This document shows positions 55,746-61,576 of a stretch of DNA of 64,000 bases, piece after piece. Source of the stretch: Spizellomyces punctatus DAOM BR117 (Eukaryota); assembly GCA_000182565.2 (NCBI GenBank), contig KQ257465.1. One strand, given 5' to 3'. Positions within the stretch are counted from its first letter, which is position 1. Every line of letters starts with the position of its first letter. Under the pieces are notes generated by a model. It saw only the letters and a program-made list of their open reading frames with translations, ran no database searches and had not been told where the DNA came from. The position numbers and the translations under genes are program-made.

Positions 55746-56942
55746 TCAAGTGGTGTCGTCGATGTCCTCATCATCGTCATCTAGTAACCCTATGCCAGCA
55801 ACCGCACATGCAACTTTCGCGGCCAGTGCTCTACGCTCTGCATCTGGTAGTGCTTGGCCATACTCTGCAGAGACGTGGATGTTAGTTTCACATCTAGTAA
55901 GATGAACCACATGATATGACATTTACAGACCTCGGAAGCCTTGCAGAGTTTTTAGCGCATGTTCAAACCCATCATCGTCAGAATCGTCTTCAGGTGCGTT
56001 AGTTTCCAGTTTTCGAAATATCATAGCTCGCGTTTGAGAAATGTCTAAGATCGATGGCATCTCTTCTAGTGAAAGATCTGCAAACCCTAAGACTGACGCA
56101 TTAAAAAAAATGCAAATCCACGTGAGTATACTTCCTAAATACACACTTGTCTGGTCGTCATCCACGAGCCCAACTTCAGTCTTTTCTTGTATTTTTTCAC
56201 GATCATGTACGGCACGCTTTCGTACCATCCCATCCCACATGTTACTCTCCAACGCCTCAATTATGCGTTCAAATCCCACGCGGTCTTCAAATGCATCGAT
56301 CGAGGAAGGTGTGCCTTCAAGTTGGTGTAGGTCAACAAATTCTATACCATTTTCGATGCAGAATTCTTTATGGGAGTCAAGATGAGAAAGTGTGGTTGCT
56401 GTTGAACCCTGGATCACGTTGGCAATGCAGAGAGCGACGCTAGGCGTGTTTTCTGCCAGGAACGGTGTCCACACTCGTAAAGGCTCAAACGTGTCAGGCT
56501 AAATACGCGACGTATTAAGCAACTTCCGCTTTCTATATCCATCATTGCAATAGTTCGTTGCTGCGCTCTCACCTTTTGCCGATCGTATACGAATATAAAC
56601 CCATCGATAGCGTGTGCCACAACCGACCATTCCGCTGATTTTGGCTCTTCCTCTTTCGCGGTTGATATAGAGTCAACCCAGAATACCACTTCGGCGGTAT
56701 AGTACTTTGTATCAAGTGTCATGGGTATACAAAGGGGCGGTACAGTAGTTTGTGGTCCCGCTCCCAGTCGTTCTGTCCGATCATTGTGTCCCAGGATTTC
56801 TGAGGAGAATGATTTCAGTGCAATGTGGATATTTATATTGCTGCAGTTGCTGTATAAGATTACTTTTGACGAGGTCCAACTTTCCCACTCCGGGATGTCC
56901 AATGACGAGGATCTTGTTTTTGAGAGAAGGTTCCGACTCCAT
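55746..56942 (-). CDS. AAGAB: Adaptin-binding protein p34 (AAGAB/Irc6 family)
   Basis: G-protein-like N-terminus ILVIGHPGVGK, DTKYYTAEV, CIENGIEFV, RIIEALESNMW, LPDAERRALAAKVA. Confidence 0.82.
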
Positions 56943-57416
56943 ACTCGGTTGTTGGAGCGTCTGGGCGATGCGCCATGGTGCTGTCTGGGATGGAATGGGA
57001 GGCTTAGCGGCGCGCTTGATGAATTGAACCAAATATTTTTGCTTTGGTAAGGCAATGGGTGACAATATGGCCTGTCCCTTATGGTCCACAAACCCAAAAT
57101 AAGCACAGTTTGATGGAGCTGCTGACTCTACAGCTCATGAATAGGGATCTGGAAAGCTGCATTGATCATCATCAGTCGCTTGCCCTTCGCTGGGAACAAT
57201 ACAGCCGGTCGCTGAGTAATTTGGTACCCTAGTGTTTGCGTAAATATTTTCAGATAACTCTAACTCATGCGCGATAGAGGTCATCCTTGGCTAGTTGAGC
57301 TATTTTTGGTTATGCTCGCAGCTGTCGGGGAAGTTGTCCCCCATTGATCAGCTTTACAAATAAAAATAGGAGCAGGCAATTTGTAACCTCCATTATTTTC
57401 GCACACATTTACGACC

Positions 57417-59505
57417 ATGCCCGTTGTGCTCCTGACGACGCTTCTTCCACCGAATACTTACTATGGAGAAGAGGACAAACGGTGGACTTATGTTCAAGTA
57501 TACCAGGCAGTTGACCTTGTGTGGGCGGTATGGATCTTTAACTCCGTGTTCGGCAAGCTTATGCAGCGTAAGAGTACTCAAATCGTAGTAAACCGTTGTG
57601 CTTGTTTTCAACTTTGTGTTGTACTTTAGACTGGATTCAGTCTGGTCTGAATCGGCGCAACTTCAGCGACTTTGTGCTCACGCTGCTGACCATAGCATCT
57701 GTTGTGCATATGGCTGCAAGAATAGTTATGGCAATTATCGTAGTTCCATGGCTAGTTCCACTGCAGCTGTTTTTGGATCGATTCTTTGTTCTCATGGTGG
57801 TTAGTATTATGTGCCTTGATCATTGCAACCAGCCCGAGTCTCATCTTTCAATTCGGTAGATCACTGCGTACGCGGCAATATCACGGAGCTTGATTTTGGC
57901 CAGTAACACAGATGCAGCCGCTAGTACCTCCAAAGTGGATGTCTTCAAGGTGCTGTCGGTTGTTACGACGGGCCCAATTCTCCTCGCGATGATTGCACAA
58001 GTTGTAGTCGCCGCACGAGCCCCTCACAGAAATTGGGAGTTAGAGGTCCTAGTCTGTGCAGCGATCGCTATGGCATTCGTAATCGAAGCCTTCATCTTGA
58101 ACTTAGCGCGCAGTCGTGTTCAATCACGATTAAACAAAGTCAAAGCCTTCCTGTCCCCTATGCAAGCCCGACGTGAGAAACGAATGCTTAGGAAGCTGAA
58201 CTATTTGACTATGTTCACGATTTTTGGCGTGTTTCTCATGGGCGGATACGCGGTTCACCTCTGGGTATTGCATAAAGTCAACTTGGATGACCCAGCGAGC
58301 GGAAACGTCGAGGTACGGGACTCTGCCATCGTCATGGCTATGGGTTTCTTGGAACTTTTGTTTGCTGGTGTTTCTGCTGCTACCGCAGCAGATTTGTTTG
58401 ATGTCACGGAGCTCAAGCCTAGCTCGCCATTCTACAAGCTTGTCACCGCCACAGCGAGTCGTGCAGGAGTTCTGGTCAGTCATCAAGGAACTATCAAAGG
58501 ATCACAGGAGCAGAAAGAATCCCGACCGAGCTCCTCGGTAAGGGGAGCACAGTTGGAAGCCGCGCCAGCGTCGCAAGCATCACAATTATCGCAAGTATCT
58601 GCAGCAAATGAGCAGCGCGAACTTGATCTGGAAAGAGAATGGAGGACTGGTCTTCTACAAACGGCCGAGGATCAAGCCTTGTGGTGGAAGAAATTGAATA
58701 CTCTAACCTGGAAGGAATTCACAACCTTCCCGAACCCGATATCTGAGGCAGAAATTCGAATTTGGATCTTTATCATGGCATTCATATGCGCTTTAAGTCC
58801 TGTGCTGGATATTTTTGCGGGAAGTCCCGTTTTCTATTGGTTCATATTGTACGAGTTGATCGTCAGAACATTGTTTGGAATACGACTAGGTATGTGCAGC
58901 AGTGGAAATAGGCCCGAGTATCGCCAGAAATTTATCTGACGTGTGATTTCTTAAGACCCTATTGCCTACCTCGCGATGTTCGTCATTAAGCCTTATGGTG
59001 AGTTAAAACTGATGTGCGTTCCACACTTATATCAGCGGATTCACGTTATCTTTATTTCAAGTCGTTGATCGATGGGAACTAATCGAGGATTTAATGGTAC
59101 GGGAAGAGATAAACTGGACAACAACCAGAAGACTGATCTTCCTTCTTGCAACAGGTTGCCGGCCCGCCACGAAGGCAAGCGATGATTAATCCTATTCCTC
59201 CTACCTTGATGGCCACCATCGCCTGGCACTGTGGCTGGCCATACGGGGCTCGGTGGATTGGTGGTCTGCTGGCGGCTACGTGTTTCGCACAGGCTTTCTA
59301 TGATGTGTGCCTTGGATGTGCAGTCTTCTGGATCATGATCAAGCTTAAGATTGCTCCACGAGAGCAGTGCGAGGTGTGCACGGTCACGCTGGGAGCATCT
59401 GGAGAGCAATACTGCCTATCGCGTCCAAAGAAAACGAACATGACTGAGTCTGTCATCGCCCAAAAATCAGTTGTCAGTCACAGACCAACAGAGTTGGTTG
59501 ACTGA
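57417..59505 (+). CDS. 7TM receptor-like domain fused to C-terminal DUF4395-like membrane domain (6 exons, about 592 aa)
   Basis: Exons 57417-57567, 57630-57799, 57860-58889, 58956-58997, 59062-59096 and 59155-59505 join in frame. C-terminal FPNP..E..R, AGPPRRQA, CLGC, CEVC. Confidence 0.75.
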
Positions 59506-59751
59506 TGGCAGATACCTATACACGCAATACCCTTCAATAGATTAGTTTGTGGTTTGCGCTTGTCATCAGTTATAGTTAGTCTCAAGTTTAACATGGTGAA
59601 CCTGAATCAATCCTCATTTGCTCGGTCGTGTGGGCGAAACGGGCGGGGTTATTAACCTCGCTACGTCACCAATTTTTTAGCCTGTGGCACAGCATTATCT
59701 TGATATTCAAGTTCCGCTGTCTCTACCCTAGTTGCATCGTCTTGTCCAGCG

Positions 59752-61576
59752 ATGAATTCCCTAATAGCTACTTCCATCTTCATCTTGGCTGTGTCAAGCG
59801 TGCTAAGTCATGCAAGAGCAGCGCAGCTGCCTCTTTTGAACGCAGTTGTGGAAGGTAACGACAAACGGTTTGGACGATTCCTTCATATTACGGACATGCA
59901 CTTGGACCCGTAGGTACACACATTGTCACTATCGGAAAGAATTCGTCCATAAATTCCCTTCTACTGTAGCTACTACGAAGAAGGTGCACCGATAGCGACA
60001 AGTTGCCACGGAATAGCGGATGTTCTGATCGCACGGAAGAAACGACCACAAACCGACGCAACAGCAGGGAAATATGGGACTCCTGGAAGTGGCTGTGATT
60101 CCCCTCTATTACTCATCAATGAGACAATGAGATTCATTGCGGGAATATTGAACGCTGGGGACAAGTTGGATTTTGTTGTGTGGACTGGAGATTCTGCCAG
60201 GTAATCACGTGATCTAGTCGACTCCATTTCTCACCTCTCACCTTCGTCCTATTCATGAATATGAATAGGCACGATAGCGACTCGCGCATTGTACGAACGG
60301 AAGGAGAGATACAGGCGCTGAACGCTTTGGCGGTGGAGTTCCTGTTAGGAGCATTTCCGTCAGGGGGCGAGAAAGGGTCAATCCCGATCGTCCCGAACAT
60401 TGGCAATAACGATATTTGGCCACACAACGACCTGATATACACACCATCTATTCCGAACCCGACGTTAGACTTTTATGCTACATTATGGAAACCATTCATA
60501 CCCGCTGATCAGACTGAAGAGTTCCGGCGACATGGAAGCTTTGCTGTCGAGGTCGTTCCAAATGTTGTTGTTGCCTCAATCAATACCATGTACCTCAGTG
60601 ATGGGAACAAGCAAGTTGATGACTGTAGGGCATCTAAAGATGATCCGCTGGCTGCTGGAGATGATGTTCTTCAATGGCTTGCAAATGTGCTGAATGGAGC
60701 GCGCCAGGGCGGAAAGGCAGTGTATATTGCCGGCCATGTACCACCCACCCCAATCAACTTTTATCCGAACTGCTACGAAAGCTTTTCCAAACTCATGATA
60801 GATTATACAGACGTTGTTGCTGGCCAGTTTTACGGTCATATGAACATTGGTAAGCGCGGGAGCCAGCATTCTTGAAAGCAAATGTGTGCGCTAACTCCCA
60901 ATTCATGTGGATAGATCACTTCTTTTTCCCCACTCCAGCGAACGCTGTTGGTGAGGACTCAACATCGACTACCGAACAAGGGGCCATAGCGGAATCTCTG
61001 CGGGCGTATATGCCTTATTTTTCGGCTAGCTCTCTTGCCCCATTGACAGAGCCCCTTCCACCACATGCCGGAGGTACTGTAGGTACAACTATACCTAGCT
61101 GGCTCAATCTCTACTGCCATTACCTCATCAGACATTATACCGAACTGGTACATCAAGTCAAGAAGAATCCAGACCTGCGGGTACCACAGCCTGTCTTCGT
61201 GTCTCCCTCAGTGGTTCCGTCCTTCAATCCTTCCTTAAGAGTATTCGAATACCGGAAGAGCATGGGTGATGTTCAGTCTACTGTAGGCCATCTGATCGGG
61301 TACACCCAGTACTTTGCCGACATTGAGAAATGGAACAAGCGGAGCAAAATTGGGGATATGACTGTTCAAAAGGACGAATTCCCAGGATATATTTACGAGA
61401 CAGAGTATCGTCCAGGATCCTTGTATGGTTTAGAGAAATTTGATGCTGAAGAATGGTTACGATTCGGCGGACGGATGGCAGGAATTGGAGCAGACAAAAA
61501 TACAGCTGCCCAATTAAGGGAATTATATCTCGCTAATTTGGTAGTTAGACTGAAGGGGTTGAAGGTGCCGGTTTGA
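59752..61576 (+). CDS. PPN1: Endopolyphosphatase (Ppn1), metallophosphoesterase
   Basis: N-terminal signal/anchor; FLHITDMHLD, GCDSP, WTGDSARHD, NIGNND, GHVPP, YGHMNIDHF, SPSVVP. Confidence 0.9.

Follow-up and report, generated by a model that had tools for sequence, protein, structure and literature searches.

A chytrid membrane protein that joins a predicted seven-helix domain to a bacterial-type DUF4395 module

What could a protein do that joins a receptor-shaped seven-helix membrane domain to a second membrane module of bacterial type? The question is raised by SPPG_07546, a gene on the plus strand at 57417-59505 of a 64,000-nucleotide stretch of contig KQ257465.1 (assembly GCA_000182565.2) of the soil chytrid Spizellomyces punctatus DAOM BR117; the whole stretch is called the window here. 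A reading made from the letters of the DNA (the sequence-only reading) had described the product as a novel fusion of a seven-transmembrane (7TM) domain resembling G-protein-coupled receptors (GPCRs) to a DUF4395 module with CxxC cysteine pairs. The fusion architecture itself was confirmed by the gene model, by a match to the Pfam family PF14340 and by seven predicted helices. SPPG_07546 is an expressed protein with, according to prediction, 11 membrane helices. We favor the reading that its DUF4395 domain, which belongs to a subtype that we call type A, would be a cytosol-facing thiol or sulfur relay tethered to an orphan 7TM sensor, and we give this reading about an even chance.

Gene model, transcripts and distribution

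Joining the six exons between the ATG at 57417 and the TGA at 59503-59505 gave 1779 nt with a single terminal stop; the five introns all have GT..AG ends and measure 58-66 nt. The spliced product is letter-identical to protein P0005 (SPPG_07546, XP_016605196.1, 592 aa, S. punctatus DAOM BR117), for which the public annotation gives 'DUF4395 domain-containing protein' only, i.e., a name taken from the C-terminal domain. The exons are as follows.

57417-57567, plus strand: exon 1, codons 1-50 and one further base; encodes an acidic N-terminus and 7TM helix 1
57630-57799, plus strand: exon 2, codons 51-107; helix 2 and first part of helix 3
57860-58889, plus strand: exon 3, codons 108-450; end of helix 3 to helix 7, linker and first two DUF4395 helices
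58956-58997, plus strand: exon 4, 42 nt; central part of DUF4395, colinear with the paralogues and with bacterial DUF4395
59062-59096, plus strand: exon 5, 35 nt; encodes VDRWELIEDLM, conserved in family members P0008 and P0007
59155-59505, plus strand: exon 6; encodes the VAGPPRR motif, the final two DUF4395 helices, the two cysteine pairs and a tail modelled with low confidence, followed by the stop

Exon 3 sits within an open frame at 57860-58939, and the domain junction lies inside this exon, so that the fusion is independent of any splice. The sequence-only reading had made the same point, and the uninterrupted exon at 57860-58889 indeed runs from residue 108 (helix 3) to residue 450 (past the second DUF4395 helix). 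Its start, stop and quoted peptides agree with our model; it had not listed the 35-nt exon at 59062-59096, which we include because the reading frame needs it.

The gene is transcribed and polyadenylated, as seen in RNA contigs of runs X1 and X2 and in raw reads of run X12, which carries the same species label. One X1 contig is spliced exactly at 57567>57630 and 57798/57799>57859/57860, and the second joint is also present in X2. RNA contigs cover 57412-58170 and 58206-58685, with no joint in the exon 3 part (57859-58170 and 58206-58685). The X12 reads pile up at 59163-59648, and depth drops after 59648. The 3' end is placed as follows.

59616, plus strand: approximate poly(A) addition site; 12 X12 raw reads run on as A after 59616

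Beside the spliced contigs, two X2 contigs (57412-57631 and 57770-57849) are unspliced through intron 1 and into intron 2, respectively, and could be retained introns, pre-mRNA or DNA carry-over. The contigs of the root-metagenome runs X1-X3 differ from the window by single bases at 57914, 57961, 58596, 59356 and 59463, which suggests that they come from a close strain rather than from the sequenced isolate.

As far as searched, the fusion is restricted to the chytrid order Spizellomycetales. Residues 108-304, run by HMMER against 1.84 billion representatives, matched 5 proteins, each of them a member of the chytrid fusion family. A word-indexed search with exon 3 found 3 proteins. The DUF4395 region, compared with proteins of 325-1036 aa, matched 4, which likewise belong to this family. 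Among shorter proteins, none of 28 candidates matched the DUF4395 region at E <= 0.01, by a method that requires shared 5-residue words and is therefore silent on stand-alone eukaryotic DUF4395. A genome-contig search with our alignment A2 gave 66 pattern matches, of which none was confirmed. Besides SPPG_07546, the family comprises the full-length S. punctatus paralogue SPPG_04841 (46% identical over 571 residues). S. 'palustris' has an orthologue of each paralogue, Gaertneriomyces sp. JEL0708 contributes two genes and G. semiglobifer one, and two further members are unnamed fragments. Both halves are present in each member whose model is complete. In P0009 (Gaertneriomyces HDU85_001857), similarity is lost after about residue 455, directly behind ...LFGVRI, at a point where the other genes carry an intron; the deposited model probably reads through this intron, hence the truncated look of its DUF4395 half.

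These data bear on the simplest alternative, that two neighboring genes were wrongly joined in the gene model. What speaks for such an artefact is that introns 3-5 had no joint in the RNA contigs and reads examined and that no single RNA contig spans the whole gene. We accept these introns because of the frame, the GT..AG ends, the identity to P0005 and the colinearity with relatives. The junction, moreover, lies in one open exon without a stop, the RNA contig at 58206-58685 crosses from helix 6 to residue 382, and the same architecture recurs in the paralogue and in other genera. We therefore regard an artefact as close to refuted.

The DUF4395 module and its bacterial relatives

The C-terminal half has the following features.

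58724-59394, plus strand: DUF4395 module, residues about 396-556, spanning introns 3-5; Pfam envelope 413-537
59308-59319, plus strand: C528-L-G-C531 (CxGC of the family), at the start of a short helix (529-539) within the last membrane helix
59368-59379, plus strand: C548-E-V-C551, second pair, 20 residues after CLGC and at a helix start in the model

PF14340 matched P0005 at residues 413-537 (profile positions 9-128 of 130; E 4.1e-9) with 37.3 bits against a curated gathering cut-off of 24.5 bits, so the proposal that the C-terminus is DUF4395 holds. P0007 scored 29.4 bits and exon 6 alone 21.2 bits. The match was found in four of the seven family sequences, the other three being truncated or mis-modelled. 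We built two AlphaFold models. The first, from 4 sequences, had a mean predicted local distance difference test (pLDDT) score of 44 and served as a cross-check only; the second, from 62 rows of which 57 are bacterial DUF4395, had a mean pLDDT of 76.9 and a predicted template modelling (pTM) score of 0.69. In the second model, block-mean pLDDT for DUF4395 residues 391-540 is 83-96. The nearest language-model neighbors of residues 385-592 are bacterial DUF4395 clusters (0.88).

Both cysteine pairs noticed earlier, CLGC 528-531 and CEVC 548-551, are present. C528, G530 and C531 are nearly invariant columns in the DUF4395 alignment A4, and the second CxxC is also found in P0008, P0011, P0007, P0012 and P0013. 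The P-x-(R/K)-F motif of the central loop is kept in part: P481 is retained, and at position 484, which is F in at least 90% of the A4 rows, P0005 and P0007 have Q and P0008 has L.

To place the domain, we collected bacterial DUF4395. The family was present in 71 of 201 genomes of an Actinomycetota sample (66 of 196 without five genomes flagged as unpublished), in 47 of 121 of a Chloroflexota sample and in 7 of 151 of a Bacillota sample, as well as in one of ten singly searched genomes and 3 of 14 named controls. From the loci, with two from unpublished genomes left out, we extracted 60 open reading frames (ORFs) of 138-265 aa, all 60 of which carry CxGC in the last helix. We define type A by three features: an N-terminal FPNP(V/I)xE, an (A/P)GPP(K/R)R motif and a tail CxxC 20 residues after CxGC. 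By this definition, 14 ORFs are type A, 10 have a C-terminal extension and 36 have neither. The spacing between the two pairs is exactly 20 residues in all 14 type-A ORFs, and the chytrid domain has all three features.

In a BLASTP comparison of the chytrid domain with the 60 ORFs, the top 14 matches were exactly the 14 type-A ORFs (E 1.5e-16 to 4e-6), followed by the next ORF at 1e-4. Identity between chytrid and type-A sequences is 24-31% over about 160 residues, and the motifs are colinear. In a maximum-likelihood tree of 63 rows, type A and the chytrids form one clade (support 96/95), within which the chytrids (100/100) sit beside a row of the Chloroflexota sample on a branch of length 2.31 with deviating composition. 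The domain is thus of bacterial type, as had been proposed: its nearest relatives among those sampled are bacterial type A by BLASTP, tree and language-model neighbors. The likeness consists of colinear motifs, CxxC spacing and membership of one clade; the bacterial type-A proteins (about 165-190 aa; Actinomycetota and Chloroflexota samples) differ in standing alone, whereas the chytrid domain comes after a 7TM domain and a conserved helix of 50 residues.

The bacterial proteins point to thiol or sulfur chemistry in two ways, by fusion and by gene neighborhood. Ten of the 60 ORFs carry a C-terminal thioredoxin-like extension. PF00085 scored 26.4 bits in L147 against a cut-off of 23.5, while L138 (22.6 bits) and L136 (22.3 bits, Thioredoxin_2) both lie under the cut-off. 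The mean number of cysteines per ORF is 2.4 in plain forms, 4.4 in type A and 5.5 in thioredoxin-fused forms, from which it follows that nearly every cysteine belongs to a CxxC. A third CxxC lies upstream of the thioredoxin-like domain in 7 of the 10 fused forms; in the fusions of about 233 aa (L138, L143, L147, L148, L174, L175 and L178) it ends the second helix. The three CxxC pairs on the predicted cytosolic face of these fusions look like a disulfide cascade.

For gene neighborhoods, we scanned the two flanking ORFs of 54 loci (108 ORFs), leaving out six loci (contig ends and near-duplicates). The commonest families among them were Thioredoxin (8), Thioredoxin_2 (8), Rhodanese (7) and acyl-CoA dehydrogenase (4). 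A gene of the thioredoxin family is a neighbor at 9 of the 54 loci. At 7, the next gene downstream, on the same strand, encodes a tandem rhodanese of about 277 aa; these seven loci are the seven rows of one actinobacterial clade in the 63-row tree. At two loci of the Actinomycetota sample (L200:2829-4799 and L201:2598-4576), a thioredoxin (139-140 aa), DUF4395 and a tandem rhodanese (277 aa) follow each other in this order on one strand, an arrangement that we take to resemble the mycobacterial thiX-cysA2 neighborhood. With thioredoxin fusions at 10/60, thioredoxin neighbors at 9/54 and rhodanese neighbors at 7/54, the statement in the sequence-only reading that DUF4395 is often found near sulfur or redox genes is borne out. 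In two Chloroflexota-sample genomes, a gene for a prokaryotic JAB-domain protein adjoins DUF4395 (L225:4040-4477 and L228:3019-3435); JAB proteins process sulfur-carrier proteins.

The neighboring thioredoxins appear to be membrane anchored. All six that were read (Chloroflexota sample) open with a hydrophobic helix and continue with an Arg-rich stretch, and the same arrangement precedes the thioredoxin domain of L206. In bacterial DUF4395, the mean number of lysines and arginines (K/R) is 5.65 in the central loop and 3.14 after helix 4, compared with 0.14 and 0.05 in the two short loops. Together with the positive-inside rule, this distribution predicts that CxGC and the tail CxxC face the cytosol, as do the fused domains and the anchored thioredoxins.

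The neighbors at type-A loci are RNase_T, GNAT, Peptidase_A4, VanW, YbjQ, Cob_adeno_trans, Ad_Cy_reg and three ORFs without a family. We infer that the tail CxxC of type A stands in for the partner protein.

The main rival to a thiol or sulfur relay emerges from the same cysteines. The four of them (CLGC and CEVC) might bind a metal, either Zn, Fe-S or a thiophilic ion such as Cu(I), which would make DUF4395 a metal-binding or metal-relay module; we consider this possible, if somewhat unlikely. The first-Cys-to-first-Cys spacing fixed at 20 residues in the 14 type-A ORFs and in the chytrid proteins would suit a metal site, as would the position of both pairs at helix starts in the model and their predicted exposure to the reducing cytosol, and one type-A locus has as neighbor the YbjQ family, annotated as 'putative heavy-metal-binding'. 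That neighbor, however, occurs at only 1 of 14 loci, and in 36 of the 60 bacterial ORFs the CxGC pair supplies the only two cysteines, which would not suffice for a mononuclear site except in a dimer. Where the second pair is supplied in trans or by fusion, it is part of a thioredoxin fold, the standard fold for disulfide exchange, and the rhodanese neighbors indicate sulfur transfer.

The seven-helix half and its tether

The N-terminal half and the segments that connect it to DUF4395 are as follows.

57477-58396, plus strand: 7TM domain, residues 21-286, spanning introns 1 and 2; seven helices in both AlphaFold models
58106-58201, plus strand: basic loop between helices 5 and 6, residues 190-221, 11 K/R of 32
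58397-58567, plus strand: low-complexity Ser/Gln/Ala linker, residues 287-343, poorly conserved; pLDDT < 50 at 314-338
58568-58723, plus strand: conserved long helix before DUF4395, residues 344-395, EW..QTAE.QA.WWK...T.KEF; model helix 344-384

The seven hydrophobic segments described earlier are found both by hydropathy (about 31-49, 62-96, 101-121, 137-160, 168-190, 220-245 and 259-285) and in the AlphaFold helices (21-55, 62-86, 92-122, 130-160, 162-204, 207-246 and 259-286). Over this region, 10-residue block-mean pLDDT in the second model is 67-89. The three predicted cytosolic loops hold 13 K/R and the N-terminus plus outer loops hold 1, so that the topology is predicted to be N-out/C-in. 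Invariant polar or charged residues lie inside the helices (Q154, N188, E272 and D285), and helix 7 is the best conserved stretch; together they suggest a functional core.

In a VIA all-against-all structural search with the second model, the top 50 rows were all 7TM proteins (Z 13.2-15.5; root-mean-square deviation [rmsd] 3.7-5.3; 209-270 residues aligned; 6-13% identity). They include many class A receptors, G-protein-bound receptors such as Ste2 (Z 15.0), TAS2R14, TMEM87A (14.4), microbial rhodopsins (KR2, 15.1) and designed GPCR-like bundles (Z 15.1, rmsd 3.7 over 215 residues). Structural matches of the low-confidence first model gave the same 7TM picture. Microbial rhodopsins, TMEM87A and the designed bundles score about as high as the GPCRs. 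A microbial (type 1) rhodopsin was considered and rejected, since residues 259-286 (helix 7) hold no lysine and the protein is therefore not a retinal protein.

At the level of sequence, the 7TM half of P0005 had no match in Pfam, in NCBIfam (searched with the exon products) or among PDB sequences, and a profile from alignment A3 gave 0 hits against PDB sequences. None of the GPCR families of Pfam was matched by the 7 family members, the best being Sre at E 0.028 in one member. Class A GPCRs are marked by DRY where helix 3 ends, by CWxP in helix 6 and by NPxxY in helix 7. These motifs are absent here: helix 3 ends in ...AAISRSLIL, and helix 7 reads VRDSAIVMAMGFLELLFAGVSAATAADL. The top three language-model neighbors of residues 1-300 are unnamed clusters; THH1/TOM1-3 (PF06454), GPR137_N (PF27607) and PRRT3 (PF25987) score 0.91-0.93, a nearness that we treat as a lead only, as no hidden Markov model match accompanies it. 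The description 'GPCR-like 7TM' holds at the level of the predicted fold, which rhodopsins, TMEM87A and designed bundles match about as well, and falls for the sequence, which matched no GPCR family.

The loop between helices 5 and 6 had been likened to a G-protein-coupling loop. It is indeed basic, with K219 invariant in all seven family sequences and R218-K219-L220-N221 invariant in the four sequences of alignment A2. This charge is no evidence of G-protein coupling, because the positive-inside rule predicts it for any cytosolic loop.

Could SPPG_07546 nevertheless be a conventional GPCR of the 'GPCR-bigram' kind, binding an external ligand and acting on heterotrimeric G proteins through the basic loop, with DUF4395 as an effector or regulatory appendage? 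The fold matches to G-protein-bound receptors, including Ste2, and to many class A receptors are consistent with this, as are the N-out/C-in topology and the long basic loop with its invariant residues. There is also a precedent in the oomycete GPCR-bigrams, in which, according to a review (PMC6033456), the 7TM domain is followed by a catalytic domain at the C-terminus (PIPK, adenylyl cyclase, PDE, phosphatase and similar). The missing GPCR family match, the empty profile search and the lack of visible DRY, CWxP and NPxxY motifs argue against it, however, and so do the equal scores of non-receptor folds and the fact that any membrane protein would be expected to have a basic inner loop. We therefore consider a conventional receptor distinctly unlikely; G-protein coupling is possible but unsupported.

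The tether also matters for how the two halves relate. The Ser/Gln-rich linker noted in the sequence-only reading is present as a Ser/Gln/Ala-rich segment; before it come a conserved S-P-F motif and, in the model, a short helix (297-308). The long helix at 344-395 that follows has many invariant columns across the chytrid family and no counterpart in the bacterial DUF4395 rows.

An alternative in which the halves would be less separable is that all 11 helices belong to a single enzyme or transporter, in which the 7TM half would bind a lipid, a quinone or another substrate for the DUF4395 cysteines. DsbB and VKOR, which pass electrons to membrane quinone, would be the model for such an arrangement. 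The invariant in-helix residues, the conservation of helix 7, the equally good matches to non-receptor 7TM proteins (TMEM87A) and the whole-chain pTM of 0.69 are in line with it. Yet about 100 linker residues, partly disordered, separate the halves, and bacterial DUF4395 works without a 7TM partner in the 60 ORFs described above. A bis-haem electron carrier was rejected, since H77 is the sole conserved histidine (in the four sequences covering helix 2), which makes a bis-haem site unlikely. Taken together, we rate a single 11-helix enzyme as very unlikely and retain the tethered relay as the favored reading.

In the window, the gene is flanked upstream by open frames with a P-loop-like GHPGVGK stretch (56414-57134, minus strand) and downstream by a gene with a signal-peptide-like start followed by FLHITDMHLDP (59752-60204, plus strand), which we take to be metallophosphoesterase-like; the fragments of both matched no Pfam family.

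A candidate tethered relay and its place among known systems

The favored reading can be put as a series of steps. An N-terminal orphan seven-helix domain with a predicted fold of the GPCR/rhodopsin class and N-out/C-in topology is tethered, through a cytosolic linker made of the disordered Ser/Gln stretch and the conserved long helix, to a type-A DUF4395 domain. The latter is a four-helix membrane module whose invariant CxGC lies close to the predicted cytosolic end of the last helix. There, CxGC may carry out thiol-disulfide exchange or carry persulfide or sulfane sulfur at the inner membrane face. A partner CxxC could come from three sources: the tail 20 residues on (type A and chytrid), a fused thioredoxin-like domain, or an anchored thioredoxin encoded by an adjacent gene. 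In the last and least secure step, the state of the 7TM domain would be coupled to that of the cysteine relay within one polypeptide; either a 7TM ligand would gate the thiol chemistry, or the redox or sulfur state would tune the 7TM domain. A more specific version seems unlikely to us: a membrane relay of thiol-disulfide or persulfide type, acquired from bacteria through gene transfer, would be gated by a ligand on the orphan 7TM domain and would let an external cue act on cytosolic redox or sulfur signaling without G proteins.

Several points weigh against this reading. Its weakest part is the proposed link between the activities of the two halves. For the 7TM half, a Foldseek search of the PDB with the model gave no match at E <= 0.001 (best E 0.011); helical bundles commonly reach Z about 14 in VIA; and the 7TM region of the second model was built from five family sequences only. 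For DUF4395, several of the thioredoxin matches, in fusions and neighbors alike, lie below the Pfam cut-off, and the flanking ORFs were called by a crude rule of length and GC content at third codon positions. The 14 type-A loci, moreover, have no recurrent thioredoxin or rhodanese neighbor, so that the gene-linkage argument rests on the other subtypes. A CxxC-16-CxxC arrangement in the reducing cytosol is also a classic pattern of a Zn or Fe-S site. The exact sister of the chytrid branch is unsure because of its length and deviant composition. Finally, the searched literature holds passing mentions of DUF4395 and no experiment on any DUF4395 protein.

Among known systems, a functional analogy is offered by VKOR-thioredoxin fusions and by DsbB-DsbA, in which a four-helix membrane protein with CxxC exchanges disulfides with a fused or separate thioredoxin-fold partner. 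DUF4395 shows both the fused and the separate arrangement. The analogy is functional only: DUF4395 has no Pfam or PDB-sequence match to these proteins, and its cysteines and their partners are predicted to be cytosolic, on the opposite side. In a search of PDB sequences with the A4 profile, thioredoxins were reached only through the columns of the fused domain, and the membrane-domain columns yielded two non-significant matches only, to a designed ion channel (E 0.059) and to a mycobacterial membrane protein of 49 residues (E 0.7). We know of no quinone link for DUF4395.

Rhodopsin-guanylyl cyclase of Blastocladiomycota is another 7TM domain joined to an output module. Like this enzyme and the GPCR-bigrams, the chytrid protein has an N-terminal 7TM domain and a possible C-terminal output module in one polypeptide; those proteins append soluble enzymes of known activity, whereas the chytrid protein appends a bacterial-type four-helix membrane module of putative activity. 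The text of the GPCR-bigram review does not contain 'redox', 'thioredoxin' or 'chytrid' (PMC6033456).

The channels of the gustatory-receptor-like (GRL) family have N-in topology. SPPG_07546 is predicted to be N-out, and no insect odorant or gustatory receptor (OR/GR) channel is among the 50 VIA rows. S. punctatus has such a 7TM ion channel, SpunGRL1 (PMC7746228); it is a different protein (XP_016607089.1 versus XP_016605196.1), and identity with it was rejected.

The sequence-only reading knew of no description of this architecture, and we found none of the chytrid fusion or its family in the searched literature; the supplementary lists of fungal GPCR surveys, such as PMC3251606, might name the gene. 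The locus tags and IPR025508 were absent from the searched literature, and PF14340 appeared in unrelated papers only. The protein record itself is already public; what is new here is the linkage of DUF4395 to thioredoxin fusions and to thioredoxin and rhodanese neighbors.

In nature, 7TM domains joined to output domains are rare, and such fusions serve as experiments on receptor-shaped control without G proteins; the chytrid fusion differs from the known cases in that a second membrane module of bacterial type is appended instead of a soluble enzyme. The fusion provides a handle on two unknowns at once, an orphan 7TM family of Spizellomycetales and DUF4395, which is common in some bacterial phyla, in an organism, S. 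punctatus, that is genetically transformable. The bacterial comparison turns DUF4395 into a testable claim, that of a thiol or sulfur relay at the inner membrane face. If true, this would give DUF4395 its first function, that of working in the membrane with anchored thioredoxins and rhodaneses.

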